A DNA stretch of 64,000 nucleotides from Escherichia coli (GTDB lineage Bacteria > Pseudomonadota > Gammaproteobacteria > Enterobacterales > Enterobacteriaceae): assembly GCA_902499925.1 (NCBI GenBank), contig GCA_902499925.1_4130.1, one strand, 5' to 3'. Made by a program: the position numbers and the translations under genes. Shown here piece by piece: positions 27,323 through 55,880 of this stretch (positions are counted from its first letter, which is position 1; every line of letters starts with the position of its first letter). Under the pieces are notes generated by a model, which saw only the letters and a program-made list of their open reading frames with translations, was not told where the DNA came from and did no database searches.

Positions 27323-27823
27323 TTAGGTCACAGCTTTGTATTTCTCCATTGCTTCGGTGATATTCAATACTGCTTGCGGTACGTCACTTTTGTTGTATGC
27401 AGTGTTTAGTTTTTCCATGTTATTGAGAAGACTTAGAAACAATGGAAGTACTTCTGCATTGTCACTGAAGTTACAATCATTGACAGTACTCAATTGAAAT
27501 AACTCACCCGCATCAACATTGAGTGTGTTGTATTCTTTAACAATGTTTTCTTCAGTATTGAAGATGTAGAATACAGTCCCCATGTGGTGTAAGTATACAC
27601 CAGTTTCATTCTGAATATGACATGGGGTGATTACAATTGCTGTGTTATCAATATTATTTACTATTGTCAAACGCAGACTATGTAACCCAAAGATTACAGT
27701 ACAATCCTTTGTACTGTGTTGGATCTGGTCACTAGTAAAGGAAGACCCACTATGATTTTTAGAACCATTTAGTATTTCTTTGATAATTTTAAATGAATTC
27801 TTCATCGAATTAGTTAAAAGCAT
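27323..27823 (-). CDS. paralog family A member
   Basis: core GELFQLSTVN. Confidence 0.55.
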   Translation of the reverse strand: MLLTNSMKNSFKIIKEILNGSKNHSGSSFTSDQIQHSTKDCTVIFGLHSLRLTIVNNIDNTAIVITPCHIQNETGVYLHHMGTVFYIFNTEENIVKEYNTLNVDAGELFQLSTVNDCNFSDNAEVLPLFLSLLNNMEKLNTAYNKSDVPQAVLNITEAMEKYKAVT

Positions 27824-28223
27824 GAACTTTACCTTTAAGTAGATTAATTAATGTTCGCATAGATTCAGTACTGACAGTACCAAAATCAACACCTAAGCAC
27901 TCGTATTGAAAGAACTCAATAGAATCAATTGAGTCCAAAGGAATCTCAACAACCTGATTCCCTATACCAGACATAGTAACATTGCTTTTATTAATCGTCA
28001 AGAAGTTTTTTGAATAAGTATTAAATTTTAGTGAAATCGCGTCGGGGTGCTTTGTAACAATGCAGTACTGGGAACCATACACATATAGTACTTTACTTTC
28101 ACTAAGATCCGTTTTAAAAAAATGAATCCCATTGAAGTATTTCTCATTGGCTCCCATCGCCGCGATTAGTTCATCTGTTGTTGTTAACCTTGTTTCGTTC
28201 TTCGTTAAACTGTTGAAAAGCAT
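27810..28223 (-). CDS. paralog family A-like (divergent)
   Basis: IEFFQYECLG. Confidence 0.45.
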   Translation of the reverse strand: MLFNSLTKNETRLTTTDELIAAMGANEKYFNGIHFFKTDLSESKVLYVYGSQYCIVTKHPDAISLKFNTYSKNFLTINKSNVTMSGIGNQVVEIPLDSIDSIEFFQYECLGVDFGTVSTESMRTLINLLKGKVHAFN

Positions 28224-28644
28224 AGAATACTACCTTAACCATTTGTAGTGTTTCAGACATTACTTCTGATGAAAATTCAACATCATTGAATTTCAGCATA
28301 GTGTTCTGTGTAAAGAAAGTTGCTTCTAAGTCTTCCAGATTGAAGGGTTCATCAAACAAATTAGTACTGAACATGTCAGTCTTCTTCTTGTATGTGAACA
28401 AGAATTTGGAATTATAACGAAGAACTACTTCATCTTTATTGACCAAAATACGTGCAATGTTCTGACGTGCTAATGTTGTAATGTTTAAATTGAACACGTT
28501 CTTGCGTGTTTCAGTGATATCAACAAAATACCCATCTCCCTGATGGATATTACATCGTACATCCAACCCTTTCTGTACTGTATTGAACAGTGCATCTTGA
28601 ATAAAATAATTTGCTGTATCGATGTTTCCTAAAATATCTAACAT
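28171..28644 (-). CDS. paralog family A-like (divergent)
   Basis: EATFFTQNTML. Confidence 0.4.
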   Translation of the reverse strand: MLDILGNIDTANYFIQDALFNTVQKGLDVRCNIHQGDGYFVDITETRKNVFNLNITTLARQNIARILVNKDEVVLRYNSKFLFTYKKKTDMFSTNLFDEPFNLEDLEATFFTQNTMLKFNDVEFSSEVMSETLQMVKVVFYAFQQFNEERNKVNNNR

Positions 28645-29156
28645 AACTTCTCCTTGATTGCTGTCATATTTAGAAGAAATTCTTCAAGCAATTCCTCTGT
28701 AACATACTCAACATACCAGAATATCACAATATCTTTTGAAAGTCGAGTATTAATAAAAATATCTACTAACTCTTTGTAGTACTTTAAATCATTAAGATCT
28801 TTTAAAATCAATGAGTACTGAAATATTAATTCTTCTGTTAACTTAAATTCTGGATATAGTAGATCATTAAATTCCTTTGACCCAATTAGGACTTTAATTT
28901 CTTTAAAATTATTTGTTATACCACCATTGCTTCCATATAACGCCGCATATTCCATGAATTTGGCTTTGGGGTTCCAGTCCAGAACCGTTTCCCCTTTATA
29001 TGATAAACGATAGAACGCAGAGAACTTGGTTATTTCCCACGGTTGCTTAATGCCTAATTCATGTATATCAATCCCACTGTACAAAATATCAGTGAATATC
29101 TCACCAATCTTCAATAATAATTTAGTACGTGCTAGTACTGTCATAGGTTCAATCAT
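28638..29156 (-). CDS. paralog family A member
   Basis: EELIFQYSLIL. Confidence 0.55.
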   Translation of the reverse strand: MIEPMTVLARTKLLLKIGEIFTDILYSGIDIHELGIKQPWEITKFSAFYRLSYKGETVLDWNPKAKFMEYAALYGSNGGITNNFKEIKVLIGSKEFNDLLYPEFKLTEELIFQYSLILKDLNDLKYYKELVDIFINTRLSKDIVIFWYVEYVTEELLEEFLLNMTAIKEKLC

Positions 29157-29569
29157 TATACACCTTCATATTCATCAAGGAAATCTTCGATGATCATTTC
29201 TGCGTCATCCATGTGCATAGCATCAACTTCAACAATGCGAACCTTAGACGTATCCCAAATCATATAGCTAGGAACTGTATCTGGTTCGTAATCGTTTTGG
29301 TACTGAACTGCATCATAGCCGTTAATCTCGCAGTACTCAATCACTCCACGCCATTCATCATCACTGCCCATATCCGTCCATAGAAGCACGTTATCAACAT
29401 CAACTTCTAAGGTATGCAAGTATACTGTATCAGCGTCAACGACGTTTAGTGGGCTTCTCAGTTTGCGTAATGCAGCTTCTAAAGCACTGTGTTTACCTCC
29501 CATATGAAGGCCACCATACGGGATATAAAAGTTATCAATTTTTACAGTACTCGCATGATACAGTTTCAT
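29156..29569 (-). CDS. hypothetical protein
   Basis: 137-aa ORF without family A core. Confidence 0.45.
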   Translation of the reverse strand: MKLYHASTVKIDNFYIPYGGLHMGGKHSALEAALRKLRSPLNVVDADTVYLHTLEVDVDNVLLWTDMGSDDEWRGVIEYCEINGYDAVQYQNDYEPDTVPSYMIWDTSKVRIVEVDAMHMDDAEMIIEDFLDEYEGV

Positions 29570-29578
29570 TATTCATTC

Positions 29579-30163
29579 CTATTTCAGTACTTTGACCAGG
29601 GCTTTAACCGCTGTTTCAAGTTGTGCAAAGTCGTTGATTGTAAGATAATGAATACCCAATGTACTCATTTCTGAATCTATTTTACTATACAAATCGAACA
29701 TGTCAAGTAGATATTGATATGTATATGACTCCGATGACACACATGATTCTTGAAATAGACGTTCTTCCATATCATTTACTACTTCATCATTTACGTCTCG
29801 AATCACACCATCTTTGTATGTGTAGTAAATCTCATCCCATTCATCTGATAAGCGGAATAGTAAAGGTTTACCATTAAACATCTCAAGGTCATATGCATTG
29901 ACTTCACTCAATAACATATCATCAGGATCAGGTGTGAAATCGAATTGAGCGAGTGAAGAACCATCATAATCCTTAAGGAATACACCAATAGCATTCAATT
30001 TAACTTCGCCATAATTGCCATTCTTGAACTTCACACGAATATTAATATCAATGCTTTGAACCGTATCATCATCTTGGAACTGATAATCAATTTTATACTT
30101 TTCCCAAAGTTTTTTAATATCTTTGAAGTACTTAATTTTACTTTCTATTTCTTTAAAGTTCAT
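29579..30163 (-). CDS. paralog family A member
   Basis: EERLFQESCV. Confidence 0.55.
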   Translation of the reverse strand: MNFKEIESKIKYFKDIKKLWEKYKIDYQFQDDDTVQSIDINIRVKFKNGNYGEVKLNAIGVFLKDYDGSSLAQFDFTPDPDDMLLSEVNAYDLEMFNGKPLLFRLSDEWDEIYYTYKDGVIRDVNDEVVNDMEERLFQESCVSSESYTYQYLLDMFDLYSKIDSEMSTLGIHYLTINDFAQLETAVKALVKVLK

Positions 30164-30791
30164 CTGGAACCACCATCTCTTGTATGTTCTTGCATTTTAT
30201 CATTGCACAATTAGTATGTAAAATGATAGAGTACTTATGTAATGATTTAATTTTATAACACTCATTAAGTACTGAAATGATGCCCCATAACTCTTCTACA
30301 TCAATAGTGATAGGTTCACTAGTACTAAGTTGCATTAGTGCTGCTTCCACATCATCTTTATTATTGATTTTGAACTGCATACCATGTTTCAGTATTTTGG
30401 TTTTTGGATTATACTCTGCCATTACATCACCTTCAGGGTAACCCTCGTGTAATAATAATGTTGTATCATAATCTCCACAATTGAAATTAATTTCATCATA
30501 GTCAGGAACACAAATCATTCCTTCACCATATTGATTATCTACTGATTCGATTGTTAAAATACGCTGATGTTCATTACTCAGGATAATAGAATCGTGCCAG
30601 TACTGCGTAGTAAATTTACTACGTTTCTTTTGACAGCACATACTTGACATAGAGCCATACTTTTTATATAGGGACTTCTTGAATGCTATCGCACCAGGAG
30701 CCACCTTAATAACTTCTCGAATTAGGTCAATAGCTTCTTGATAACTTTTTCTCATTTGTCGTACCCATATAAAATATGATCTAGTGTGCAT
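30153..30791 (-). CDS. paralog family A-like (divergent)
   Basis: ALMQLSTSEP; start may be internal Met. Confidence 0.45.
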   Translation of the reverse strand: MHTRSYFIWVRQMRKSYQEAIDLIREVIKVAPGAIAFKKSLYKKYGSMSSMCCQKKRSKFTTQYWHDSIILSNEHQRILTIESVDNQYGEGMICVPDYDEINFNCGDYDTTLLLHEGYPEGDVMAEYNPKTKILKHGMQFKINNKDDVEAALMQLSTSEPITIDVEELWGIISVLNECYKIKSLHKYSIILHTNCAMIKCKNIQEMVVPDEL

Positions 30792-31303
30792 TGTACTTCT
30801 TCATGGAAGAACAATGGGTAAATTTGTATCAATTTTTCTTTAAGTTCAAGTGAATGGCATAATTCTAATGCTTTGATACAATCTTCATATTGAACTAAGC
30901 TATGTATTGTACTTAACTGGAAATGTTGTTCTTCAGAGTAAGCTAAATCATATACCAAATTATCATCTAAAAGGTTTGATTTCTTTGAAGGATCAAGTAC
31001 TGTGTTGCTATGACCTACCCAGAAAAAAGCATTGGTGTTCATATTATTACAACCCCAACCTTCCCCCATTTTCTGGTGAATAGCAAAGACACAACTATCA
31101 TAGAGATTAATACCAAGACGTTCTTCGTTGACATAAATCGTAACACCATCGATTGTCATGGTTATTTGGAAACGCATTGAACCTTCACTTCGTGAACGTG
31201 CACAGAAGCCAAGATAACGGTTAATAATTGTATTGATTTTATCTGCCCATCCTTCCACATCTTTGGATGCACATAATTTAAAAAGATCATGACTTTGATT
31301 CAT
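30752..31303 (-). CDS. paralog family A member
   Basis: EEQHFQLSTIH. Confidence 0.6.
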   Translation of the reverse strand: MNQSHDLFKLCASKDVEGWADKINTIINRYLGFCARSRSEGSMRFQITMTIDGVTIYVNEERLGINLYDSCVFAIHQKMGEGWGCNNMNTNAFFWVGHSNTVLDPSKKSNLLDDNLVYDLAYSEEQHFQLSTIHSLVQYEDCIKALELCHSLELKEKLIQIYPLFFHEEVQCTLDHILYGYDK

Positions 31304-31314
31304 GTAGTTCTCCG

Positions 31315-31896
31315 TTAATCAAGCATAAGTGGGATCATCGCCCATATCTTTTTCATAATCATATCTTCAGTAAAAACAAACGTTTTAGGTGCAGTATATG
31401 ATATTGACAACCCAAATGGAAGTACGATTGCATCATCAATTATATTATGAATATCAAACCATGTTTTTACACAATCATATGGTGGAAGTTCATGTATTGT
31501 ACTTAACTGAAAGTATTGTTCTTCACCAAATGTACTGCAATCAATATCACAAATTTTAGTGAATTGATGATTCCATTTAGATATAATACTGTTTTTATTA
31601 TTGAACATATTAGTTCTATGCATGAAACCATTTCTGCTAATATGATTTGATATTGCGTTTTCTTCAATATCATTGCTTATTTTAAAATTCATGTCAAAGT
31701 TGTAGTACGAACTCGACGATTCTTTGAATTTTAAATGAAAATAACGATTGTTATTAATTTCCATTTCAATACAAAACACATCTGAATCAAAACGATTAAA
31801 CTTGTAATCGTTGTCTTCAGGTAGATTCTGTAATTTTTTCATAACACCAAGCATAGGGTGAACTAAACTTCTAATAAAATCATTAGTTATTTTCAT
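31315..31896 (-). CDS. paralog family A member
   Basis: EEQYFQLSTIH (near-twin core of previous gene). Confidence 0.6.
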   Translation of the reverse strand: MKITNDFIRSLVHPMLGVMKKLQNLPEDNDYKFNRFDSDVFCIEMEINNNRYFHLKFKESSSSYYNFDMNFKISNDIEENAISNHISRNGFMHRTNMFNNKNSIISKWNHQFTKICDIDCSTFGEEQYFQLSTIHELPPYDCVKTWFDIHNIIDDAIVLPFGLSISYTAPKTFVFTEDMIMKKIWAMIPLMLD

Positions 31897-32814: not shown

Positions 32815-33392
32815 TATAGCACCTTATCCATTGCTGCATTTAATGCTTTTAAACGATCAACATTCAAAGTATTGAAGATGTACGTTCCTAAAATGTGGAA
32901 ATCGAACTGGTTCTTTTTGTATGTGTGATAAATTAAACTACAAAAAACAACAGTACTAAGAACCTCTTCCGGTATAACGGTGCTCATCTGAAACAGTTCT
33001 TCATCAACTGTACTTGATTCTGGATTGATAGCTTTTAACTTATACTCTTCATCACCGAATAGTACTTTAATATTATATAAAACACCAACAGTACTAATAT
33101 GAAATGGATGGTGTGAAAAACTTCCATCATCATTAATTTGGATATCGGATCTAATCTCGCACTCTTCATTACTTTTACTATTATTTTTTACAATACAAAT
33201 ATTCCTGGCACCAGAAATAGTAAGAATACCGTGATCGTAATATTCTTTGGACATACATTTAGATGAAAATGACACATCACGGATGAGGTAATGTTTGTTA
33301 ATTTCTTTGGTACTACCAACAATGGATAACATTTTTGTACTGATATCATATAGCTGTTGGTGTCGGGCTGTCATATAACTATAAGCGTTCAT
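32814..33392 (-). CDS. paralog family A member
   Basis: DEELFQMSTVI. Confidence 0.55.
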   Translation of the reverse strand: MNAYSYMTARHQQLYDISTKMLSIVGSTKEINKHYLIRDVSFSSKCMSKEYYDHGILTISGARNICIVKNNSKSNEECEIRSDIQINDDGSFSHHPFHISTVGVLYNIKVLFGDEEYKLKAINPESSTVDEELFQMSTVIPEEVLSTVVFCSLIYHTYKKNQFDFHILGTYIFNTLNVDRLKALNAAMDKVL

Positions 33393-33963
33393 ATGTATCC
33401 TTGATGTTTTTGATTGCCGTGTGTAGCTCTTTTAATGTATCGGATTCACAGTTAATGAACTTACTATACATTACCAATTCACCAGTGTCAATAGCTTTTG
33501 CAGTTTCATAGCAAAGCATCATGTACTCAAACTCCTTGAAGTTGTCAAGTACTGATCTCTGGAAAATGTATGCTTCACGAATGTCTTCACTTTGATCTAG
33601 TTCTGGTGGAATTTCCAAATATGTATCATTCTCTACGTCATCAAAATTGGATTCGACAATTCGATTAATATCTTCGTGTAAAGCATTGACAAATATCATG
33701 TTTGGAGTAATGGAACCGATTTGCTCACTATGCCTTGATGTGCGGATATACATTGCCATAGTATCCCATGAACCTTTTTTCGTCGTTCCATAATCGTAAA
33801 CTTTATAAGACTCCAGTACTACTGAACCAAAACGATATGGTGATTTGCATTCAACTTTAAGACGATAATTTCCAATAGGCTCATGTTCAGTAATGTTGTG
33901 CTTTTCAGATAGTTCTGCAATGTCATGCATCAATTTCATAATTTGAATGTGTTCAGCTTGCAT
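33379..33963 (-). CDS. paralog family A member
   Basis: EAYIFQRSVL. Confidence 0.55.
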   Translation of the reverse strand: MQAEHIQIMKLMHDIAELSEKHNITEHEPIGNYRLKVECKSPYRFGSVVLESYKVYDYGTTKKGSWDTMAMYIRTSRHSEQIGSITPNMIFVNALHEDINRIVESNFDDVENDTYLEIPPELDQSEDIREAYIFQRSVLDNFKEFEYMMLCYETAKAIDTGELVMYSKFINCESDTLKELHTAIKNIKDTYERL

Positions 33964-34526
33964 TATAAGTCCTCTAATTTAACAGGTACATGTTCATTGA
34001 TGAACGTCTTAAGAGCCAGTACTAGATCTTCTAATTCTTCTGTACTGAATTTTAATATAGTTTTAAAGATTATCAATTCATTTCTTTCTATAATCTTTGG
34101 AATTTCATATGCTAACATAAGATTGCGAACAGTACCAGCGTTGTGTATGAGGTTCGCATTGAATAAAAGTACATCGTACTCGTCTTTTTTAATTTTATAA
34201 TTGTACTCTTCAATTACTTCATGTGTGTATGTATTCTTATAAGCAATTTTATTTTTATGAAATTTATAACCAACAGTAACACTATCATCATAAAATGTAG
34301 AACGATAATCTTGTTTTCTATCGCCGGACGAAATGATGTGTAATGCTGTGTATTTGTCCTCAACATCTAACTCAATGTTTGCATAACTGTTAACAGTTTC
34401 ATTCTTTAGGACGTTAATGTTATATTTCTCATTAACTTTAATGTACTGGCGTGAACCATTATCATCAATGAACTTAAAACAATGCTTTACCAACAATGTG
34501 ATTTCTTTAATTAATTCAGTACTCAT
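33963..34526 (-). CDS. hypothetical protein (possible degenerate family A)
   Basis: 187-aa ORF within array. Confidence 0.45.
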   Translation of the reverse strand: MSTELIKEITLLVKHCFKFIDDNGSRQYIKVNEKYNINVLKNETVNSYANIELDVEDKYTALHIISSGDRKQDYRSTFYDDSVTVGYKFHKNKIAYKNTYTHEVIEEYNYKIKKDEYDVLLFNANLIHNAGTVRNLMLAYEIPKIIERNELIIFKTILKFSTEELEDLVLALKTFINEHVPVKLEDL

Positions 34527-34553: not shown

Positions 34554-34582
34554 ATTATAACACACCTGAATGCTCATGTAAA
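34554..34582 (-). promoter_or_regulatory. sigma70-like promoter candidate
   Basis: Minus-sense TTTACA-17nt-TATAAT with TGn extension, ~25 nt upstream of ATG of 33963..34526. Confidence 0.5.
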
Positions 34583-34584
34583 GC

Positions 34585-34613
34585 ACTAAACACAAAAAGA
34601 CCCATAAGGGTCT
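34585..34613 (-). terminator. rho-independent terminator candidate
   Basis: Minus-sense AGACCC-uuau-GGGUCU followed by UUUUUGUGUUU immediately after stop of 34614..35198. Confidence 0.55.
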
Positions 34614-35132
34614 TTATTTTGGTAAAACGCTGTCAATGTACGCTAGAGCCTCATCTCGGAGGTACGTTCCATCTATCGTTATGTAATAGTTCTTAGGGAT
34701 ATCACTACCAATCTTCTCGTAAATTTTCATACATGATATCACATCTTCATCACAAATGGTACTCAATTGAAACTGTACTTCATCAGTTAAAGGTACGATA
34801 TCATGTTTAGATGGGGGGTTGGTATTTTCATTCAAAACAATATCAAACAAATTAGGAGTATTCTTTGACGAAATGTAACGATGTTTACTACGAATTACCA
34901 TTCTCGACAGAGAAATACTGGAACTCCATCTTGGGTCCACATCTTCGTATGTTAACGCAATTAACATTTCATAATAATCTTGGAATTTCATTGATGCATA
35001 ATATGTTTTGTCCTCACCGTACATTCCAAATGATTTGAATTCAATGTCACCTACATTGTGTGTATCACTATCACTATTCACGAATTTTAACAGACTGTTG
35101 ATTAGTCTGATTAGAATATCATCTTTATTCAT
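34614..35132 (-). CDS. paralog family A member
   Basis: DEVQFQLSTI; track ORF 34614..35198 trimmed to internal Met (MNKDDIL). Confidence 0.5.
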   Translation of the reverse strand: MNKDDILIRLINSLLKFVNSDSDTHNVGDIEFKSFGMYGEDKTYYASMKFQDYYEMLIALTYEDVDPRWSSSISLSRMVIRSKHRYISSKNTPNLFDIVLNENTNPPSKHDIVPLTDEVQFQLSTICDEDVISCMKIYEKIGSDIPKNYYITIDGTYLRDEALAYIDSVLPK

Positions 35133-35682: not shown

Positions 35683-36224
35683 AATTGTACCTTCAATATT
35701 TTATCAGCAATTGATATAACCTTCTCACTGAATACATTACCAATCTCAATCCTTATATACATAGCAGGTGGAATCTTTCCTTGAAGTGCATAATATGTTT
35801 GTATACCTAAGTACTCATTATTTGATAATGAAAATTTGATTCTCTCCATATCTATGTCTGATTTTGGTAAATCTAGTAGTTCATGGTGGTAGTCAACATT
35901 TTCAGTGTATATTTGATTTAAGTAATTTGAATGATCACTACTAATGTAGATGCTATCATCACGAATAATTACTTTATAATCAGAAGGTTCAAACTTATCT
36001 TTAGGCGAAAAGAAGACATCATCTATCTTCTCTTCTCGTATACCGAATAACAATTTGCCATCGTACTTTACATCAAGCATACCACCTAGAATAGTAATTA
36101 CACAATGTTCATCAATGTCATGACGTAAAGAACGAGTCTTGTATTTTGGGTTAATGAAAATTTTCATTAATTTTATACAAATGTCGGCAATGCATTTTAC
36201 ATTATCATTTTCTATGTACATCAA
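35679..36224 (-). CDS. hypothetical protein (possible degenerate family A)
   Basis: 181-aa ORF in array. Confidence 0.45.
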   Translation of the reverse strand: MMYIENDNVKCIADICIKLMKIFINPKYKTRSLRHDIDEHCVITILGGMLDVKYDGKLLFGIREEKIDDVFFSPKDKFEPSDYKVIIRDDSIYISSDHSNYLNQIYTENVDYHHELLDLPKSDIDMERIKFSLSNNEYLGIQTYYALQGKIPPAMYIRIEIGNVFSEKVISIADKILKVQL

Positions 36225-36699
36225 AAACCCTCTTTAATTCTTTTACATTTTTAATGAATACTTTCATTGCAGAGATCTCAAAAGATAATGATTTAAAATT
36301 GCAGTACTTTTTAAAGTACGACATAATGAATAGCATCTTGAGTTCTTTTTCTGTGTAAATTAAACTATTTTGAAAGTAACTTTCTTCTGATAAATCATCA
36401 AGAAACGGATATAAAACTCCATTTGTTCTCAAGAACATGATACCTTCACTCCATGATCTAAATGAAAGGTAATCAGTCTTACCACATTCATATAAGGAGT
36501 TTATCATTCCATCAATCATTAAGGAGAACTCAATACTGTATCCTAATCTTTGACACTTGTATCTCTTATCTTCTTTCTTTGTAATTACGAAGTGATGACC
36601 CAGTGAGTCTTTGTTATCGAAAATGAAATCAACTGTCTCTAAACACTCCTTAGCGAACTTCATAGTTTCTCTGTACTTTCGGTTCATTAGTCTCTCCAA
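36205..36699 (-). CDS. paralog family A member
   Basis: EESYFQNSLIY. Confidence 0.55.
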   Translation of the reverse strand: MERLMNRKYRETMKFAKECLETVDFIFDNKDSLGHHFVITKKEDKRYKCQRLGYSIEFSLMIDGMINSLYECGKTDYLSFRSWSEGIMFLRTNGVLYPFLDDLSEESYFQNSLIYTEKELKMLFIMSYFKKYCNFKSLSFEISAMKVFIKNVKELKRVFDVHRK

Positions 36700-37100
36700 A
36701 CTTTACCAGGGAAGTGTTTCTCGTAGAACTCATCATCACTTAACATATAATCAGGTGTTTCTACTTCTATGGGTTTGTAGAATGTTTCTGGAATGTGTGT
36801 GATTTTATTTGGTTGTACTTTATGTTCGCGTAAAACCTTCTGTATAGCTCCTAGACGTTGTAAATCAATACAGGTGGGCAGAACTAAGCTGTACTGAAAT
36901 AGCTCATCAGGGGTCATTATAGATACATCCTTGGCTTGTTTGATTTTATTGTTGGCATCAATGAATATATCAAATCCAAGTACTGCATTATAGCTTACAT
37001 ATGTTGTTTTGTTTTTGTCAATAGCTGCACTTAAACTATATCCATATATTCCATGTTGGTCAACAATGCATCGTTGCATAATTTTAATCATTTCGAACAT
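36687..37100 (-). CDS. paralog family A member
   Basis: PDELFQYSLVL. Confidence 0.55.
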   Translation of the reverse strand: MFEMIKIMQRCIVDQHGIYGYSLSAAIDKNKTTYVSYNAVLGFDIFIDANNKIKQAKDVSIMTPDELFQYSLVLPTCIDLQRLGAIQKVLREHKVQPNKITHIPETFYKPIEVETPDYMLSDDEFYEKHFPGKVWRD

Positions 37101-37446
37101 AATTTACCTCGTATGTGTTATAATTCCACGTTTTAACACTATCCATTTGTATATCCTGAACTTCATGGAAATATTTAAGTACCTTCTGGTATTCCATTAG
37201 TTCGTATACATCTTCAGTATTGACAGTGCTCTCCTGAAACAATTCCTCTTCTGATAAAGTACTATAATCAGGGATTTTTATTTCAGAATATATCTCATTC
37301 ATATATGAATCATTTTGGTAAATCTGTAGATAAAACTGATTATATTCAGGGATATAGGTTACGAAATGGTTCTTGATGAATTCATATCTTGAAGCAAAGC
37401 AATCATTGCCATCCGTCATGTACTGAATTGTTGTTGTATTATGCAT
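37084..37446 (-). CDS. paralog family A member
   Basis: STLSEEELFQESTV. Confidence 0.55.
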   Translation of the reverse strand: MHNTTTIQYMTDGNDCFASRYEFIKNHFVTYIPEYNQFYLQIYQNDSYMNEIYSEIKIPDYSTLSEEELFQESTVNTEDVYELMEYQKVLKYFHEVQDIQMDSVKTWNYNTYEVNYVRND

Positions 37447-37921
37447 TCAAATAATCCACGCATTTATGGTATACATCTAAATCTAAAAAGAATCGTTGTT
37501 TGTATTTGTAATGATGAAGTAGTGCACCATAAAGTAATATAGCATTAAGTACTTTTGCATCATGAATACAAGACCCTTGGAAGTACATTTCTTCAGTCAT
37601 GAAAACTAACTCATTGTAAGGGATAAGCACTGAATCTCTAAATGTATCAATGTTAATCTTCAAATCGGACCCTTGGCAATATGAAATATATTCACCTCTG
37701 TAATGAAAGTCATTATCGTCAAAGTACTCAGCATATACTTGATTGTCCCTATTATTTTTAAAGGCAAGTCTTCCTTTGGTTGAACTGAATTGGTCATATT
37801 GGAACATTCCACCAAAAGGAATTCCACCGAAAGGTTGGGGACTTCTGAACTCCTTTGCAATGCGATGAATGTTAGATGCAAATTCTAAAACACCATCGTA
37901 ATCATATTCTGTTGTAATCAT
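37439..37921 (-). CDS. paralog family A member
   Basis: EEMYFQGSCI. Confidence 0.55.
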   Translation of the reverse strand: MITTEYDYDGVLEFASNIHRIAKEFRSPQPFGGIPFGGMFQYDQFSSTKGRLAFKNNRDNQVYAEYFDDNDFHYRGEYISYCQGSDLKINIDTFRDSVLIPYNELVFMTEEMYFQGSCIHDAKVLNAILLYGALLHHYKYKQRFFLDLDVYHKCVDYLNA

Positions 37922-38397
37922 AGACCATTTTTCTCCATGTACTCAATGATTTCATCTACGAAGTTTAAATCCATATAGAATCTATCATTTGCGTCATTGA
38001 GTTCATCTTTAAGTACTGTAAAAATTGTAGAACTAAACACGATTCTCTCATTGTACAAAGTACTGTACTGGAAGAATTCTTCTTCTGATCTAACATTAAA
38101 TGTGTCATATTCATCATCAACATCAGATCTAGGATGATAGTACTTAAAACTATCAGATGTATGGAAACAATATGAGATAAAATCCCCTGATGGTGCATCG
38201 TCAAGTACACGAATACCACAGAAATTCTCATCTGTAGTATGCAACAAATTGCTATTCATTGACAAATAATTTTTGTACGCATAAAGTGTGCATCGTGGGA
38301 GAATTATATTCTCTTTAACTGTTACAAGGAACTTATGAAGTTTAATGATATTTTGTGCGATTTTTTGTGCATTGCTAAATGATAGGTCTTTGGACAT
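37918..38397 (-). CDS. paralog family A member
   Basis: EEEFFQYSTLY. Confidence 0.55.
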   Translation of the reverse strand: MSKDLSFSNAQKIAQNIIKLHKFLVTVKENIILPRCTLYAYKNYLSMNSNLLHTTDENFCGIRVLDDAPSGDFISYCFHTSDSFKYYHPRSDVDDEYDTFNVRSEEEFFQYSTLYNERIVFSSTIFTVLKDELNDANDRFYMDLNFVDEIIEYMEKNGL

Positions 38398-38456
38398 TGT
38401 GATATAACCCTTTACAATTAATATAAAGAGATTATATCACAAAGATTTGGAGGGTG

Positions 38457-43828: not shown

Positions 43829-43830
43829 TA

Positions 43831-44738: not shown

Positions 44739-44739
44739 A

Positions 44740-44925
44740 TCAACTCCTGTGTTGTGTCTTGATATAATCTCGGTACACCATGTGAATATTAGCTATATAC
44801 AATTCACTAATATCATATGTACCGAAGTACATGTCATTCCTAATGCTGTTGTTATGTCTAATATCAATTACGAATCGTCGAAGTATTGTATTCATGAATG
44901 ATTCCATTTGTTCTTTTTTATTCAT
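44740..44925 (-). CDS. small hypothetical protein
   Basis: 61-aa ORF filling the gap between array members. Confidence 0.35.
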   Translation of the reverse strand: MNKKEQMESFMNTILRRFVIDIRHNNSIRNDMYFGTYDISELYIANIHMVYRDYIKTQHRS

Positions 44926-45266: not shown

Positions 45267-45267
45267 A

Positions 45268-45633
45268 TTACTCACCTGCATTGAAATAATAACTACTTGT
45301 TGTTGGTGTAGATGTATCAAAGGTGTTTTCTTTAACATATCTCTTCATTTCATTTTGTATAAAAATCATATCTTCTATTGTACATGAGTACTTATTCTTG
45401 TCAAACACCAAAGAAGCTTGAAATAGTTCAACATCATCCAGTACTGTATAATCTGTAATACTTTCAGAGTTATAGTCGAAGTCATCATGCAATACATCAA
45501 TGAAATTAAAACACAAATCCGAGTACTGAATATATAAACTCAACTCATGTTCCGAATCACCCTTGACAAGATTGCAGCACAAATCCCACCCCGTTCTGGA
45601 CTTACAAACGTACATCGAATAATCAAATGTCAT
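45268..45633 (-). CDS. paralog family A member (CNLNKGD subfamily)
   Basis: VELFQASLVFDKNKY. Confidence 0.6.
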   Translation of the reverse strand: MTFDYSMYVCKSRTGWDLCCNLVKGDSEHELSLYIQYSDLCFNFIDVLHDDFDYNSESITDYTVLDDVELFQASLVFDKNKYSCTIEDMIFIQNEMKRYVKENTFDTSTPTTSSYYFNAGE

Positions 45634-45986
45634 TCTGGTATTCCTATATTGAATTTGTATTCTTGATTAATACTGACATTGCCTTTATTCAAAGAGTCAT
45701 ACTCTTTCATTTCATTTTGTATTGCAATAACTTCTTCAAATGTACACAAGTACTTCTTATCAAATACTAATGACTCCTGAAATAGTTCAGCGGCATCCAT
45801 TACTGTATAATCCGGCATATCCTGATGCGGATACTGTAATGAATTATAATCAATGAATGTGAATTTACCCTGAGTGAAATGAATATACTCATTTGCACTG
45901 TGCATTAAATCACCTTTGTTTAAATTACAAAAGTACTGAAAACTGTTCTTAAAAGAATGTACTGATATTACAAAATCAAATTCCAT
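45630..45986 (-). CDS. paralog family A member (CNLNKGD subfamily)
   Basis: AELFQESLVFDKKYLCTFEEV. Confidence 0.6.
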   Translation of the reverse strand: MEFDFVISVHSFKNSFQYFCNLNKGDLMHSANEYIHFTQGKFTFIDYNSLQYPHQDMPDYTVMDAAELFQESLVFDKKYLCTFEEVIAIQNEMKEYDSLNKGNVSINQEYKFNIGIPE

Positions 45987-46354
45987 CAGTACTCAACCTC
46001 TAAATTAAAAGATTCAGGAAACTTAGTCATATAATCTTCAGGATAGTTCTGCATTGTTTTGATCATCTCTACCTGTGTAGCACGGACGTATTCAATTGGT
46101 GCTCCTGGTAAATTCCAGACAGTACTTTCCTGAAAGAATTCCTCTTCTGACAGTACTGTAAGATTTACAAAATCATTACGGTAATTTTTTGAATCATCAT
46201 ATGTGAAGATTTTAAAAGACCCATTTTCATATAGTACAAGAACAAAATGTGAGAATTTTTGTAATGCACCACCCATTTCCACGTCCGCATGATTCAGTGT
46301 ACAGATGACCTCTTTTTTCCTCATACCGAATTGAATTCTAATTTCTTTTTTCAT
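45986..46354 (-). CDS. paralog family A member
   Basis: EEEFFQESTVW. Confidence 0.55.
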   Translation of the reverse strand: MKKEIRIQFGMRKKEVICTLNHADVEMGGALQKFSHFVLVLYENGSFKIFTYDDSKNYRNDFVNLTVLSEEEFFQESTVWNLPGAPIEYVRATQVEMIKTMQNYPEDYMTKFPESFNLEVEY

Positions 46355-46357
46355 AAA

Positions 46358-46494
46358 ATCTCCTTCAGATTAGTACTGAATTTGTACAGAATATTAGAAC
46401 TGTATCCATAATCAAATCACCTTTGTTTAAATTACAAAAGTACTGAAAACTATTCTTGAAAGAATGTACTGATATTACAAAATCAAATTCCATC
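46358..46494 (-). pseudogene. truncated duplicate of the 5' end of family A gene 45630..45986
   Basis: ~85 nt near-identical to 45903-45986; encodes MEFDFVISVHSFKNSFQYFCNLNKGDL then diverges and stops after ~45 codons; coordinates approximate. Confidence 0.55.
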
Positions 46495-46966
46495 ACTCTT
46501 CCCCTAGATTGAAATAATTACTAAAATTAGTTTCACCAGTTTTACACCATTTATCGATACAATCCTTGTGAATAAATTTGATCCTACGCTGGATTTCAAC
46601 TATCTCTTCTAATGTACAGTTGTACTTCTTATCAAATACTAATGCCTCCTGAAACAGTGCAGCCTCATCCATTAATGTATAATCCAGCATATCGGTTGCT
46701 TTACCCCTAAACCCAGTACTAAAATCCATCAAATAAAATTGAGAATTTTCGAACTTTATAAGTTTGTCCCTTGCGTAGTTTAAATCACGCTTGCACAAAT
46801 TACAGCACGTAATAAACTCACCAGTGTACATCCATGTCCCTATATGAAAATCTTTATATTTCATTTGCATCTTCATTTCAATTGTAATCTTTACTGTAAT
46901 TAATAAGGTAAACTCCAATATAAGGAGCACGTTCGCGGCGGGGTATTTTTTTGTTTCAGGAAACAT
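46493..46966 (-). CDS. paralog family A member (CNLNKGD subfamily)
   Basis: AALFQEALVFDKKYNCTLEEIV; true start probably internal (MKYKDF, near 46864). Confidence 0.55.
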   Translation of the reverse strand: MFPETKKYPAANVLLILEFTLLITVKITIEMKMQMKYKDFHIGTWMYTGEFITCCNLCKRDLNYARDKLIKFENSQFYLMDFSTGFRGKATDMLDYTLMDEAALFQEALVFDKKYNCTLEEIVEIQRRIKFIHKDCIDKWCKTGETNFSNYFNLGEE

Positions 46967-48283: not shown

Positions 48284-48566
48284 ATATATTTTGTCTGAAT
48301 ACCTGAAGCAATTGAACTAAACTCTGTTGCATAATAATATGCATCGCTAAATTATCAAAGGCCGTTTCGTATTGGAATCGTGCAGCATCATCTTCTATGA
48401 AATTCGGAACTTGGACTGGATTTTCAAAATTTGTCCTTGTACTGAACTGTACATCATTGTCCTGTACCTTAATACCATATGAATTATCTTTGTTATCAAC
48501 TACATCAAATTCAATTAAACTACCATCTTTACTGACGTTTACTATATAAACTGAAAATCTACTCAT
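48222..48566 (-). CDS. paralog family A-like (divergent)
   Basis: DAARFQYETAF. Confidence 0.45.
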   Translation of the reverse strand: MSRFSVYIVNVSKDGSLIEFDVVDNKDNSYGIKVQDNDVQFSTRTNFENPVQVPNFIEDDAARFQYETAFDNLAMHIIMQQSLVQLLQVFRQNIYVHEVSINGIQSSVLFSTNM

Positions 48567-49204
48567 AATCCTATTTCCTTTAAATCTTCCAAAAATGTTT
48601 CATAATCACTTAAGGAAAAAAAGATATCCGTATCGATGTTCGCATCTAATACATTATACAAATTCTGCATCTGTAACACATCAGGAGCATCAATCAATGA
48701 TTGCTGGAAATAGGCAGCTTCATCTTCCAAAATATCTCTGAATGTTCTCTCTCGTACTCTGTGGTGTACTGAATTGAATATTGATTTCTCATCCTTAAGC
48801 ATTGGTAGGTATCGAATGTACATGTGTTCTCTTAGCTCTGGACTGATGGAACCCCTGAACTGTAACACGTATTCGAAGCACATAGCAACATCCTGAAGGT
48901 AATTGGCACTGTAATTATTGCTGTAAACAATCTTATGACTTCTGAACTCATCATCATTTCTGAACCAATTGTCACCTACTTTGGTGTACTTATGACTAAG
49001 CAATCCACCCTCTAACGCTTTGATGATCTTCAAAATGTTGTGTGCAAATGCATATGATGTATTGTACTTGGCCTGATACATGTGTGCCTCATCTGCCTCA
49101 TTTGGCGTTAAAATATTCACTGAAATGATTATAACACAAAAGCACCACGATGTTAAGCACTCTGTTGTCAAAATCATCTTGTGATGCAGGATGCAAGGAC
49201 GCAT
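48563..49204 (-). CDS. paralog family A member
   Basis: EAAYFQQSLI. Confidence 0.55.
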   Translation of the reverse strand: MRPCILHHKMILTTECLTSWCFCVIIISVNILTPNEADEAHMYQAKYNTSYAFAHNILKIIKALEGGLLSHKYTKVGDNWFRNDDEFRSHKIVYSNNYSANYLQDVAMCFEYVLQFRGSISPELREHMYIRYLPMLKDEKSIFNSVHHRVRERTFRDILEDEAAYFQQSLIDAPDVLQMQNLYNVLDANIDTDIFFSLSDYETFLEDLKEIGL

Positions 49205-49902: not shown

Positions 49903-50483
49903 TTTAATGCCCCTGTAATCATACTGAAATTTGAACGATACATATCGTACACTGTACTTTCTTTCTTGTGCACAATGAAATCATAAAGATCGACGAATGC
50001 AGGAATAATAATCTTGAATGATTTATTCTTGTACGTCCCAAACTCAACGGTGCTCAATTTTGCAACGAGCATAGCAACAAAGATTTCTTCTGGACTATGC
50101 AATGTACTGTACTGAAAATAATCCTCTGCACTTATTTCACCCATTGCACTAATATCTTGTACTTGTAATGAAATTTTAAGATAATAATAAGAAAAATCAT
50201 TCTCTGATTTGTTTTGTATTTTGTATTGGTCTATGGGTACATCTCTCATGAACCATAAACGGTCCTGACCATAAAAAGGAATGATTGAATTTGGGGAACC
50301 CAAAAAAACTTCTTCTCTATCAATATCCTTTAACTCAATTTGCATACTGGATGAATTGGCAATAATTAATTCATTAAAAATGTAATGAACCTTGTGTACC
50401 ATCTCTTGTACTGAATTGAAATCATCTGGTATTTTAAAATTTTCCATAGGTATCTCCTTAAAAATGATTACACATTGTACCAT
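49899..50483 (-). CDS. paralog family A member
   Basis: AEDYFQYSTLH. Confidence 0.55.
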   Translation of the reverse strand: MVQCVIIFKEIPMENFKIPDDFNSVQEMVHKVHYIFNELIIANSSSMQIELKDIDREEVFLGSPNSIIPFYGQDRLWFMRDVPIDQYKIQNKSENDFSYYYLKISLQVQDISAMGEISAEDYFQYSTLHSPEEIFVAMLVAKLSTVEFGTYKNKSFKIIIPAFVDLYDFIVHKKESTVYDMYRSNFSMITGALK

Positions 50484-50519
50484 GCATTTGTACTGGTGTC
50501 AAACAAAAAAGCCCATATC

Positions 50520-51017
50520 TTACGATACAGGCATGTTTATTTGAATTTCATTGTACAAATCATCAATATATAGACATGAAAACGATAAACTTTCTTTAAC
50601 TATATTGTTGTGATAAAGCATTTTAAACACTATATAGAAAAATAAATCAATATCATCATGTACTAAATTCTGCTGGAACCACCACTCTTCTGTTAAATCT
50701 TGTGCATTAAAATCATCAGGAACTTCAATTGACGACATATCAACATCTTCTTTGTACTCAAACCACATGTCGTCATTCGGATAACGTTCATGTTTTTCTG
50801 GGTAACAATTGCTGGGATTAAATGCTAAAATATAAAATGTCGTCGCAGAATGTTCTTTATTAAAAAATGAATTATTCCACACCTGATACCTTTCACCAAC
50901 ATCAATCTCTTTTGATACTGATGTTATTGCACATAATGTACGATATATTGTTTCTATTTTGTGAACAAATTTAAAGGCTGCATCTAAACTGAACTCTAAA
51001 TCAGACATGCGGTGCAT
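50520..51017 (-). CDS. paralog family A member
   Basis: EEWWFQQNLV. Confidence 0.55.
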   Translation of the reverse strand: MHRMSDLEFSLDAAFKFVHKIETIYRTLCAITSVSKEIDVGERYQVWNNSFFNKEHSATTFYILAFNPSNCYPEKHERYPNDDMWFEYKEDVDMSSIEVPDDFNAQDLTEEWWFQQNLVHDDIDLFFYIVFKMLYHNNIVKESLSFSCLYIDDLYNEIQINMPVS

Positions 51018-52733: not shown

Positions 52734-53063
52734 TTATACCCTTGTGCATTTAAGCACTGTAACTAAACCTTTTGCGTTCTTGAAATGCATTAACGATAAT
52801 GATGCATCAACGTATTGTAATGATACAATTACATCTTCTGATGTGTTCTTGAATAAAAATTCCTGTACTGAATTCTCACCAAAATAAATGTACTTTGTGG
52901 ACTCAATTTGCAAATACGGAATTTCTGTACTATGTAAAAAGATATCAATTTTATCATTGTTTTGTAATCTGCAATCAAATTGATATACTTCATAATCAGC
53001 GGCCTGTACTGTATTAGAGAACATTGATAAAATAAATGTTAGAGCTAAAATAATTTTATTCAT
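52734..53063 (-). CDS. small secreted/periplasmic protein candidate
   Basis: N-terminal signal-peptide-like MNKIILALTFILSMFSNTVQA followed by AD; 109 aa. Confidence 0.5.
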   Translation of the reverse strand: MNKIILALTFILSMFSNTVQAADYEVYQFDCRLQNNDKIDIFLHSTEIPYLQIESTKYIYFGENSVQEFLFKNTSEDVIVSLQYVDASLSLMHFKNAKGLVTVLKCTRV

Positions 53064-53396: not shown

Positions 53397-53786
53397 CTAA
53401 TCGTGCCATTTAATAGGATACTCCGTTCCATTTATTGTATAAGATATAATCCATCCGTAATGAATAGGACTATTCTTTTCTCCTTTAGGAATAAAATATA
53501 AAGATGTACTAGGATTATAACTGAATAAATCTTTATTGTCAAATGTAAAATGAGATAACGTTATCTTCCTTGAACTTGGACTAATAACATTCTTAACACC
53601 AAACACGGTATCTTGATATTTCTCTGAAAATTCAAACAATGCATCTGTAATTAAATCATTGAATTCTATACATAATGGTTTAAAAGAACCATCATTATCT
53701 TTGAATTCCTTATATAAAGAGCTTCTTGTATTCAAAAGAAATATTACTTTTTTAAGATCCTGAACTATTTCTGGATTCATATTCAT
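53397..53786 (-). CDS. hypothetical protein
   Basis: 129-aa ORF. Confidence 0.45.
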   Translation of the reverse strand: MNMNPEIVQDLKKVIFLLNTRSSLYKEFKDNDGSFKPLCIEFNDLITDALFEFSEKYQDTVFGVKNVISPSSRKITLSHFTFDNKDLFSYNPSTSLYFIPKGEKNSPIHYGWIISYTINGTEYPIKWHD

Positions 53787-54003
53787 TTATCTCATCCTGT
53801 AACTTAAGCATCAAAATTTGCATATTAATTTTTTGTACAAGGTGATTGAGAAATTTCTGTACTGTATCTTCTTGTTCTTTTGACCCAAGATAAAATAACA
53901 TATTAAATTCCGATAACCTCAGAGCAAAATCGTCATCTCCCCCTTGTAAACAAAAATCCCTGTACTTTGATGCATACAAATAACGGTTTATTTTTTTGTA
54001 CAT
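53752..54003 (-). CDS. paralog family B-like (dispersed copy)
   Basis: LGSKEQEDTVQKFLNHL. Confidence 0.45.
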   Translation of the reverse strand: MYKKINRYLYASKYRDFCLQGGDDDFALRLSEFNMLFYLGSKEQEDTVQKFLNHLVQKINMQILMLKLQDEINEYESRNSSGS

Positions 54004-54031
54004 TTATATTGCATCTCCTTTAGGTATATTC

Positions 54032-54343
54032 TTATATGTCAATTTCAATGATCCTCCCTGACATACCTTGTATTAGCTTATCATACATATCGAGCATCAC
54101 TTTTTGAATACTAATTAATACTGGCATCGTGCAAATATCAATGTCGTATATTAAGCTGTACTGGAATAATTCCTCTTCCTGCATTTGTACTAAATTAGGT
54201 AAAAGATAATTGTCTGCCTCTTCATCCTGGTACTTGAAATGCATAACGCCATCCTTTTTGTACAAAAGAATGTCAATATCACCTAACTCTTCTGCATAAC
54301 CAAAAATACATATACTCGATGTTTTTGCTATATTAAATTTCAT
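54032..54343 (-). CDS. paralog family A member
   Basis: EEELFQYSLIY. Confidence 0.55.
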   Translation of the reverse strand: MKFNIAKTSSICIFGYAEELGDIDILLYKKDGVMHFKYQDEEADNYLLPNLVQMQEEELFQYSLIYDIDICTMPVLISIQKVMLDMYDKLIQGMSGRIIEIDI

Positions 54344-54352
54344 ATTCTTCTC

Positions 54353-54703
54353 TTATATGTGGAATTCACATACGTGTTGAACAAAATTCTTTGGAAGATG
54401 ACAATGTGTAATCATCTGCTTTTGTACTTCCTTCATATCTTCGAATGTAAATCCTAAAGAATCATCATGTACTAACAAGTACTGAAACTCTTCTTCTTCA
54501 GAGATAGAACATAAATTCGGTACTGAAATTGTTTTTGTTTTTCTTGCACCTAATTTCCAATGAAAAGAATTATTGCATTTTCTGTACTCAAATATCTTCA
54601 ACCCAGAACCTGTATTAAAATCAGCTACTACAATGTAACATGAATTCTTACGTACAATACAATTGAACTTACGCATTATCTCCACCTCTCTCCGTCTGTA
54701 CAA
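54353..54703 (-). CDS. paralog family A member
   Basis: SISEEEEFQYLLV. Confidence 0.55.
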   Translation of the reverse strand: MYRRREVEIMRKFNCIVRKNSCYIVVADFNTGSGLKIFEYRKCNNSFHWKLGARKTKTISVPNLCSISEEEEFQYLLVHDDSLGFTFEDMKEVQKQMITHCHLPKNFVQHVCEFHI

Positions 54704-54921
54704 GAGTACTGGTACGTTGTCGTTAGGGTAGGAACCATGTTTGTAATGGGCATATTGTTAACAATAACCGTAACAGGCATAAGAATCGTCTCTTCTCTAC
54801 TCTGTCCTGTCCTTGTGCAATTCATCTTCTGCATTTCATCTGAATCCATGAAATACAATACAAATGGTGCAATCCCAAGAACAATACACAAGACGATAAG
54901 GAAATTTAAAAAATTTAACAT
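54676..54921 (-). CDS. small membrane protein
   Basis: 81 aa, hydrophobic N-terminal helix MLNFLNFLIVLCIVLGIAPFVLYF. Confidence 0.4.
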   Translation of the reverse strand: MLNFLNFLIVLCIVLGIAPFVLYFMDSDEMQKMNCTRTGQSREETILMPVTVIVNNMPITNMVPTLTTTYQYSCTDGERWR

Positions 54922-54990
54922 AATTTTTACCCTCTATTTGAACGCTCAAAAAGTACAGGTACTATAGCACTAAAGAAAAGTACTGTCAAG

Positions 54991-55356
54991 CTAGTATTGC
55001 ACTGTTCTAATGAAAGTACCTGAACTCATGGATTTAAGCTTATGAACCTCTTCCTGTATACCCTTGAGCAACTCTAAAGGCATTGGTACATCATGTACTA
55101 AGCTGTACTGAAAGTATTCTTCTTCAGATAAAGTACTAACATCTGGGACGCCAATTTTAGTTAGATAATCTTGATGTGTTGACCAATAAATTATATCTTC
55201 AGTACAATTGTACTCCCCATATACTGAACAATATTGATGAATATCTTTCCTGTACCCTTGAGCAATAAAGAACTTATCTACGGCATTAATAGAACTCACT
55301 TCGATTGTTACAGTACTTGAGCTTGTTTTTCCTTTATTATGCATATTAATCCCCAA
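54991..55356 (-). CDS. paralog family A member
   Basis: STLSEEEYFQYSLV. Confidence 0.55.
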   Translation of the reverse strand: MGINMHNKGKTSSSTVTIEVSSINAVDKFFIAQGYRKDIHQYCSVYGEYNCTEDIIYWSTHQDYLTKIGVPDVSTLSEEEYFQYSLVHDVPMPLELLKGIQEEVHKLKSMSSGTFIRTVQY

Positions 55357-55532
55357 ATTAGATATCGAACACTATCAGCTTGATAGTTAGTTCCTACTGT
55401 GTGTTTTAATATTAACTCATCTTTCAGTACTGAACATTCTGCATTAGATATAGGAAGTGAATTAATTCTTTGAATTTCTGGTCGCAACATACCGCGAATC
55501 TTGCGATAATCTTCGTATGATAATCTTTTCAT
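55308..55532 (-). CDS. paralog family B member (dispersed copy)
   Basis: VGTNYQADSVRYLIWGL. Confidence 0.5.
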   Translation of the reverse strand: MKRLSYEDYRKIRGMLRPEIQRINSLPISNAECSVLKDELILKHTVGTNYQADSVRYLIWGLICIIKEKQAQVL

Positions 55533-55535
55533 GGT

Positions 55536-55880
55536 TTAATACTCAATAATGTGTTCTTCATAATCACCATTAGGCTCCTGTTTAGCTTCTTTCATTAGTA
55601 CTATCATCTTATGTACTAATGGCATAGGAAACTCTAAATCCCATACTAATGATTCCTGAAAGTATTCCTCTGGTGATAAAGTACTTAAATCTTTAATATC
55701 AACGTGCTTGTATATTTTATTTTCGTAATTAACAAATGATATATATAAATCATTAATATAAGAATCATACGTAATTGTGAATGGCTTACCCTTGTAGTCC
55801 ATTACATCTCTACATAGACTACTTTTGATATATATATGTTCATAGGATTTATATACCTTGAGTTGTATATTAGTTTTCAT
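55536..55880 (-). CDS. paralog family A member
   Basis: STLSPEEYFQESLVW. Confidence 0.55.
   Translation of the reverse strand: MKTNIQLKVYKSYEHIYIKSSLCRDVMDYKGKPFTITYDSYINDLYISFVNYENKIYKHVDIKDLSTLSPEEYFQESLVWDLEFPMPLVHKMIVLMKEAKQEPNGDYEEHIIEY

Follow-up and report, generated by a model that had tools for sequence, protein, structure and literature searches.

The stretch of DNA considered here (the window) consists of 64,000 nucleotides from contig GCA_902499925.1_4130.1 of the GenBank assembly GCA_902499925.1, filed under Escherichia coli. Between positions 27323 and 55880 its minus strand carries a tandem array of small genes whose products belong to a single protein family, referred to here as family A. 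Over positions 42600-46400 the identity of the window is 97.8% with the phages Turkey3 and fEgEco12 and 86% with 121Q, and on this sequence evidence it is assigned to Asteriusvirus, as part of a 121Q/PBECO4-type jumbo phage of E. coli. The public records annotate the genes underlying the array as hypothetical proteins throughout.

A listing of open reading frames (ORFs), combined with motif scans, yielded 45 minus-strand ORFs of 103-213 amino acids (aa) that bear the family A core [ED][ED]xxFQx[ST]xx (in its relaxed form [EDA..][ED..]xxFQx[ST..]xx) at a distance of 34-66 aa from the C-terminus. In one of the 45 genes (30752-31303) the relaxed regular expression took a chance upstream FQ (GSMRFQ, and not EEQHFQ), which leaves the conclusions unaffected. 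A first-pass annotation of the same DNA had described at least 43 consecutive ORFs of 100-210 aa; its limits for the array agree exactly with the first and last members found here, and its count was close, but the run of members is broken by about 22 other ORFs interspersed among them. The coding density of the array is 97.6% and none of its copies is disrupted. Six-frame translation of the window revealed essentially only one EExxFQ-type core outside the array, at position 15280. The family A proteins are mostly acidic (median isoelectric point 4.9, range 4.05-8.9; median net charge -7) and contain no transmembrane segments.

The relationship between the members is also evident from pairwise all-against-all phmmer comparison, a non-circular test in which 33 of the 45 ORFs are linked at E<1e-3. 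What is conserved is the protein and not a DNA repeat, because synonymous codons vary at the invariant residues: the phenylalanine is encoded by TTT in 27 members and by TTC in 18, and the glutamine by CAG in 27 and CAA in 18. Conserved serines are specified by AGY codons in 19 cases and by TCN codons in 16. The use of synonymous codons, and of both serine codon families at conserved positions, rules out a DNA-level repeat or a gene-conversion tract as the origin of the pattern.

Two architectures can be told apart among the members. Those of the short type, 15 or 16 in number, measure 103-138 aa, and those of the long type, 29 or 30 in number, measure 146-213 aa; the exact tallies hinge on where the 157-aa ORF at 46493-46966 is placed. 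The long type consists of the short-type core with an additional N-terminal and an additional C-terminal helix, and the profiles of the two types are joined through the core only (hhalign probability 89.6%, E 2e-6). In the short type a second near-invariant glutamine (as IQ) lies in helix 2, and the C-terminus is often [VIL]-E-Y. The recurring FYLD-type tail which had been ascribed to the whole family is a property of the long type only, and the short type has the IQ and the frequent [VIL]-E-Y end in its place.

Neighbouring genes tend to be close relatives. In 19 of the 45 members the best paralog lies no more than two ranks away, against a permutation mean of 4.0 (p<1e-4), which bears out the earlier proposal that the sub-clusters arose by repeated local duplication. 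Four adjoining long-type paralogs with the core EEYYFQ (42919-44738, minus strand) are 33-41% identical to each other, with E-values of 1e-21 to 1e-35; short-type paralogs sharing a CNLxKGD sequence (44922-46966, minus strand) are 43-51% identical, and the member at 45986-46354 goes with them; and paralog comparison also pairs the HFQLSTIH and YFQLSTIH genes that begin at 30752 and 31315 (30752-31896, minus strand). Short-type members further make up a group (54032, 54353, 54991 and 55536; 54032-55880, minus strand) at the end of the array nearest to the phage terminal repeat. Even the closest family A paralogs are no more than 51% identical.

The approximately 22 other ORFs within the array include four members of a second small-protein family (family B, described below), a protein with a signal-peptide-like sequence, a membrane protein, and about 10 that could not be assigned. 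Neither jackhmmer nor four hidden Markov models (HMMs) placed these roughly 10 motif-less ORFs in family A, with the exception of 33963-34526 (minus strand), which phmmer and HMM searches identify as a paralog of 33379-33963 that has lost the motif. Of two non-family genes at 52734-53063 and 54676-54921 (both minus strand), one has a Sec-signal-peptide-like N-terminus (MNKIILALTFILSMFSNTVQA/AD) and the other a single hydrophobic, transmembrane-like helix. A possible outlying relative lies 12 kb downstream of the array, at 14972-15661 (minus strand): it encodes a protein of 229 aa containing EEEHFQLMMM, matches the core HMM at E 3.5e-3, and has a phmmer link to the family. The ortholog of this protein in phage phAPEC6, and the gene adjoining it, also match the core HMM (18984-20248 of the phAPEC6 stretch).

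AlphaFold2 models were built from paralog and ortholog alignments for one member of each type. The short-type representative (45630-45986, minus strand; 118 aa) was modelled with a mean predicted local distance difference test score (pLDDT) of 83 and a predicted template modelling score (pTM) of 0.80. It shows five beta-strands, a helix at residues 65-74 (AAELFQESLV), a second helix at 83-99 that contains the invariant IQ, and a C-terminal strand. The long-type representative (42919-43362, minus strand; 147 aa; pLDDT 78, pTM 0.77) has an N-terminal helix at 3-21, a beta region, helices at 100-106 (EEYYFQN) and 112-126, a strand at 132-135 (FYLD) and a C-terminal helix. The motif region gives the highest pLDDT blocks in both models, at 94-96 (95-96 in the long type). 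As modelled, then, each family A member is a single compact alpha/beta domain in which two helices pack on an antiparallel beta-sheet, and the motif, which supplies the N-cap and opening turns of the central helix, is not a linker between modules; the predicted position in turn points to a role as a structural keystone. The family had been described as a conserved module attached to diversified domains. That description did not survive, since in both models there is one domain only, with the motif helix packed on a sheet formed by the supposedly variable N-terminal part, and matches between members and clusters of the PHROGs database likewise extend over the full length.

Those PHROG matches (E 1e-32 to 1e-118) are to phrog_9317, 12674, 13866, 15629, 28549, 28680, 34017, 19795 and others, every one of them labelled 'unknown function'. 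Because the clusters cross-hit each other, they can be regarded as one superfamily; in the database itself the proteins of the window are full-length members that are split over many clusters with neither annotation nor a unifying signature. No significant profile or fold match to family A was found among the curated families of Pfam-A and NCBIfam or among solved structures, so the view that the array belongs to no characterised family is upheld. A fold search with the 45630-45986 model found no relative in the PDB, and relatives in PBECO4, slurp01 and RaK2 in BFVD. Member-by-member Pfam scans gave no match to the SUKH/SMI1 or Imm families that form polyimmunity-type arrays. With respect to DNA mimics of the Ocr/ArdA type, the members are mostly acidic, yet their isoelectric points span 4.05-8.9, and no PDB fold match was obtained.

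Relatives detectable by HMM occur in jumbo phages of Escherichia, Salmonella, Klebsiella and Erwinia, in a prophage and in metagenomes. An exhaustive HMMER search of 1.84 billion representative proteins returned 110 clusters (at the 50% identity level) at E<=1e-3, essentially all of 90-160 aa and most of them of metagenomic origin. The motif was present in all 55 true matches inspected, one extra match (P0157) being an FN3-repeat false positive. Their consensus reads [IVL]-P-[DN]-[LFY]-[ST]-x-[LM]-[ST]-E-E-E-[LF]-F-Q-x-S-L-V-W-D followed by I-Q, and the phenylalanine, the glutamine and the second glutamine are 97-99% conserved across the database matches. A protein of 103 aa, labelled Actinomadura adrarensis (P0034), comes from a contig of 563 bp and is 88% identical to the E. 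coli phage protein; it most likely represents contamination of the assembly.

Further arrays are seen in Erwinia phage Hallingskeid, where eight short members are followed by at least 17 longer ones at the end of the record, and in a metagenomic contig with at least seven tandem members downstream of small, well-spaced genes. RaK2 has one family A copy within the 40 kb inspected. In Cedecea lapagei (GCA_018446855.1, JAFHZL010000001.1) two short-type members (10001-10354 and 10596-10907 of the stretch) are carried by a lambda-like prophage, with a serine recombinase on one side and a GpA-type terminase on the other, so that the domain also exists outside jumbo phages, at low copy number. The array of phage A4 contains an inserted 470-aa gene annotated as a 'methyl-accepting chemotaxis protein' (36131-37543 of the A4 stretch), and HNH endonuclease genes are found at the distal end of the A4 version.

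Comparison with phAPEC6 shows how the family is evolving. The syntenic region of phAPEC6 also holds 45 family A copies, and 41 of the 45 window members have reciprocal best hits there, at a synonymous divergence (dS) of about 0.6; phage A4 has 42 copies. The ratio of non-synonymous to synonymous divergence (omega, Nei-Gojobori method) lies between 0.05 and 0.78 for family A, with a median of 0.25, compared with medians of 0.12 for 53 downstream genes and 0.33 for family B, and the non-synonymous divergence (dN) of family A is twice that of the downstream genes. Omega is thus below 1 in all members and no copy is disrupted, which rules out an array of decaying pseudogenes, one of the findings that would have undone the first-pass reading. 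When positions are pooled, the core has an omega of 0.13, the part C-terminal to it 0.22-0.27 and the N-terminal part 0.26-0.32. On the contrast that had been put forward for testing, between a purifying core and a diversifying N-terminal part, the core is the most constrained region, the N-terminal values are those of purifying selection, and the gene-wide comparison with phAPEC6 gave no signal of DIVERSIFYING selection in family A.

The dS values of individual family A orthologs range from 0.05 to 2.4, and abrupt changes from gene to gene (from about 0 to more than 2) are observed along the whole 64 kb; these sharp shifts between neighbouring genes indicate a highly mosaic, recombining region, of the kind that results when alleles are exchanged by recombination. 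Against phage A4, genes of the terminal repeat are 97% identical and family B 66% identical, while the best hits of family A are only 36% identical. The much greater divergence from A4 than is seen for terminal-repeat genes, the mosaic dS and the doubled dN are signs of an arms-race locus. The stable copy number, together with paralogs that are at most 51% identical, shows on the other hand that the array is old and maintained and is not a recent amplification.

The position of the array in the phage genome can be read from fEgEco12, whose termini have been experimentally confirmed and which has direct terminal repeats of 20,993 bp. On the fEgEco12 map the repeat occupies 1-20,993, family B follows from 21,091 and family A from about 27,270, with all genes running rightward from the left end; when the window is mapped to fEgEco12, the inner boundary of the left repeat falls near 61.7 kb. 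Sigma70 consensus matches of at least 11/12 number twelve between 26 and 64 kb of the window, and all twelve are on the coding strand (binomial probability about 2e-4). Several of them (38460, 34582, 54989, 50502 and 49156) are located in the scarce intergenic gaps, where they have a TG extension and lie behind terminator-like hairpins. A perfect match (TTGACA-18-TATAAT with TG) occupies 38431-38460, in the gap upstream of 37918-38397. At 34554-34615 a terminator-like hairpin (34615-34596) is followed by an 11/12 match with TG (34582-34554), which marks a probable transcription-unit junction, and the same arrangement is found at 50474-50532 (hairpin 50532-50511, 11/12 match with TG 50502-50474). 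Further 11/12 matches with TG lie at 54961-54989, in the gap 54922-54990, and at 49128-49156, upstream of the probable true start of 48563-49204, which is placed near 49081 because the PHROG match begins at residue 42. Another terminator-like hairpin stands immediately downstream of the array (26675-26695). All of these elements are on the minus strand.

Neither strand of the 64 kb contains the T4 late-promoter octamer TATAAATA, for which 11.9 +/- 3.3 occurrences would be expected, which suggests that late promoters are selected against throughout the 64-kb early region; related phages encode a late sigma factor of the gp55 type. The orthologous phAPEC6 products gp404c-gp466c are absent from the 62 virion proteins detected by mass spectrometry, with no entry between gp347 and gp549. 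The location shortly downstream of the left terminal repeat, the sigma70-type promoters on the coding strand and the absence of the orthologs from the virion proteome agree with the context of host takeover or counter-defence that had been proposed for the array.

Family B comprises 29 paralogs of about 66-92 aa with the motif LGTN[YF]QE, all assigned to phrog_4148 (unknown function). They occupy 55870-61621, with outliers inside the family A array at 40828-41019, 40997-41224, 53752-54003 and 55308-55532 (all minus strand), and their array begins some 100 bp inside the boundary of the terminal repeat. From there (about 61.7 kb) to position 64000 the genes are small and well spaced, with strong promoter-like sites of their own (63471, 63165 and 63024) and a G+C content of up to 0.42. 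On the other side of the family A array a bona fide ClpP protease subunit is encoded at 1769-2464 (minus strand; PF00574, E 1e-41), 25 kb downstream of the array and in the same direction of transcription; ClpP was not found in the phAPEC6 virion proteome. Near it are genes for a metallophosphatase (3312-4103) and an ATP-dependent DNA ligase (4123-5541), and the downstream region also encodes an Rnl1-type RNA ligase (13568-14710) and Dam (22000-22524). A third small paralog family, of four phmmer-linked ORFs of about 90-100 aa, lies at 18849-20252 (minus strand).

The reading that we favour, and to which we give somewhat better than an even chance, is that family A is an old, tandemly expanded set of early, cytoplasmic, non-virion proteins with one scaffold and varied surfaces, most plausibly binders of host proteins that serve takeover or counter-defence. 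Tandem duplication in Rak2-like jumbo phages would, long ago, have built up a family of small, mostly acidic, soluble proteins, with the conserved [ST]-E-E-E-[LFY]-F-Q-x-S-L-V core as the structural keystone of the central helix. The sheet and the terminal extensions differ among the paralogs, so that each copy presents a different surface. The genes, which follow family B and point away from the genome end, would be transcribed early by the host sigma70 RNA polymerase as several operons, and their products would bind different host (or competitor) proteins stoichiometrically, making up a repertoire for takeover or counter-defence. Diversity would be kept by the old duplications and by recombination among phages, with each copy under purifying selection.

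Several considerations weigh against this proposal. Nothing experimental or homology-based ties family A to a binding partner or a phenotype, and the fold is known as a prediction only. The promoter matches are consensus hits whose total is no higher than expected for shuffled sequence, so that this evidence stays at the consensus level, and our searches of the literature found no transcriptome for Asteriusvirus. Absence from a single mass-spectrometry dataset leaves room for virion proteins of low abundance. The stable copy number and the low paralog identity do not fit a recent 'accordion', and a gene-wide omega below 1 provides no positive evidence of an arms race.

A rather unlikely variant, the modified form in which the first-pass idea of a modular adaptor survives, is that the members form an arsenal of adaptors in which the acidic FQ helix docks onto one shared partner, for example the phage ClpP-based protease or the host RNA polymerase, and the remainder of the protein recruits or sequesters varied targets; such an arsenal would, by analogy, be a bacterial-virus counterpart of the poxvirus Ank/PRANC (F-box-like) families. 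It would account for the retention of the phenylalanine and the glutamine, both about 99% invariant, and of the acidic EEE run across 110 clusters in which nearly all else varies. The glutamine is moreover invariant in the long type although the second conserved glutamine of the short type has gone there, which argues against a simple structural pairing of the two. The ClpP gene downstream, transcribed in the same direction, lends itself to this idea: ClpP, ClpS and ClpA of jumbo phages are thought in the literature to be aimed at host proteins, and RaK2 has a ClpA-like gene near its family A member. Yet the models show a single compact domain and not a docking module joined to a cargo domain, the helix that holds the motif is the most confidently packed one, which suits a core element, no Clp gene occurs in the 20 kb inspected around the Cedecea prophage with its two members, and nothing connects family A to any partner. 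The specific version in which the 45 paralogs make up a collection of substrate adaptors or decoys, and each couples a different host protein (for example a defence component) to a common machine such as the ClpP-based protease, is in our estimate less likely again; if true, it would provide a phage counterpart of the F-box/PRANC families of eukaryotic viruses, on a fold with no solved relative.

It is improbable that the copies are dispensable filler of little individual function, accumulated as tandem duplication enlarged the genome for a larger capsid. This is the idea of Hua et al., who took a tandem array of 121Q as evidence of genome growth by duplication and were followed in this by a 2026 review, and it gains from the fact that no member has a known function. 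The purifying selection on every member tested speaks against it, as do the retention of one-to-one orthologs for 41 of 45 members, the maintenance of some 42-45 copies across the genus, the persistence of arrays in an Erwinia phage, and the high coding density without disrupted copies. Packaged internal proteins that enter the cell together with the DNA and disarm the host, in the manner of T4 IPI-III, would also be small, acidic, polymorphic and encoded near a genome end, and phAPEC6 possesses an inner body. This reading is nevertheless very improbable, given sigma70-type promoters ahead of the genes and a region devoid of the late-promoter motif, and we rejected it on the phAPEC6 proteome. 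Least credible of all is that the core is a protease recognition site, cleavage at which would free the N-terminal parts from a common C-terminal tail. The tobacco etch virus (TEV) NIa and 3C/3CL-type sites, ENLYFQ|S/G and LEVLFQ|GP, require G, S or A at P1', and cores such as EENYFQQS, EEMYFQGS and EEGYFQGS do resemble ENLYFQS; but the residue after the glutamine is Y in 38%, E in 21% and L in 11% of the broad alignment (Y, E, Q, N, L or G in the window), and the motif is predicted, at pLDDT 94-96, to be helical and not an extended linker. The P1' composition and the helix predicted with high confidence led us to reject this candidate. No chymotrypsin-fold cysteine protease was found among the ORFs scanned, the window showing only the ClpP serine protease; the rest of the genome was not searched.

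The favoured explanation, a diversified repertoire of early binding proteins, can be set beside several known systems. Early host-takeover modules, such as the terminal-redundancy module of SPO1, the pre-early genes of T5 and the early 'monkey-wrench' proteins of T4, resemble family A in consisting of small non-structural genes at or near a long terminal repeat, with strong host-type promoters and pointing inward; they differ in that their genes are unrelated to each other and have known targets, and are not 45 copies of one fold. The MGF360/505 multigene families of African swine fever virus are terminal families of a large eukaryotic DNA virus. Such eukaryotic-virus families are, like family A, non-structural and strongly diverged between otherwise near-identical genomes. 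Family A has no relationship to them in sequence or fold, and its copy number is stable (42-45) and its paralogs old. The poxvirus 'genomic accordions' (a concept cited in PMC13359090) are similarly tandem paralogs next to the terminus of a very large virus. In Bacillus phage G, zinc-ribbon proteins have undergone a lineage-specific expansion to about 35 (Iyer et al. 2021, PMC7824862), which parallels family A in that a single small domain has multiplied to a comparable extent in a jumbo phage; the fold is different, and the zinc ribbon is a recognisable nucleic-acid-binding domain, whereas family A has no recognisable domain. The array can be classed with the lineage-specific expansions of early accessory genes in giant viruses, and is real, strongly non-random and functionally unexplained.

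In the literature, Hua et al. 2017 (mBio, PMC5646251) viewed a tandem array in 121Q as a product of tandem duplication, and the statement has been repeated in the phAPEC6 paper and in the 2026 review. The array in question shares its phage genus and genomic neighbourhood with the one described here and is likewise attributed to tandem duplication. The mention amounts to one sentence, without coordinates, family definition, motif, structure or function, and the array meant may be that of the neighbouring family B, whose 29 genes are near-uniform at about 75 aa, and not that of family A. Paralogues have been reported to make up about 10% of RaK2 proteins in the RaK2 paper. The available passages of a large comparative jumbo-phage study make no mention of family A, and our literature searches found no functional study of it. 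The papers cited here leave the family, its motif, fold and function undefined, but the array had not gone wholly unnoticed.

Forty-five kept copies of one uncharacterised domain account for about 8% of a genome of about 350 kb. To our knowledge the family A array is among the largest single-family investments in any phage. The family can now be defined by a signature, two architectures, HMM-detectable relatives and an expression hypothesis, and what was a block of hypothetical proteins becomes a tractable question, namely why a jumbo phage should carry an early protein in 45 variants. Should the members turn out to be dispensable, the idea of jumbo-genome growth by duplication would gain support; should they turn out to be inhibitors of, or adaptors against, host defences, the array would offer a rich supply of new counter-defence proteins and would exemplify the evolution of multigene families in bacterial viruses.

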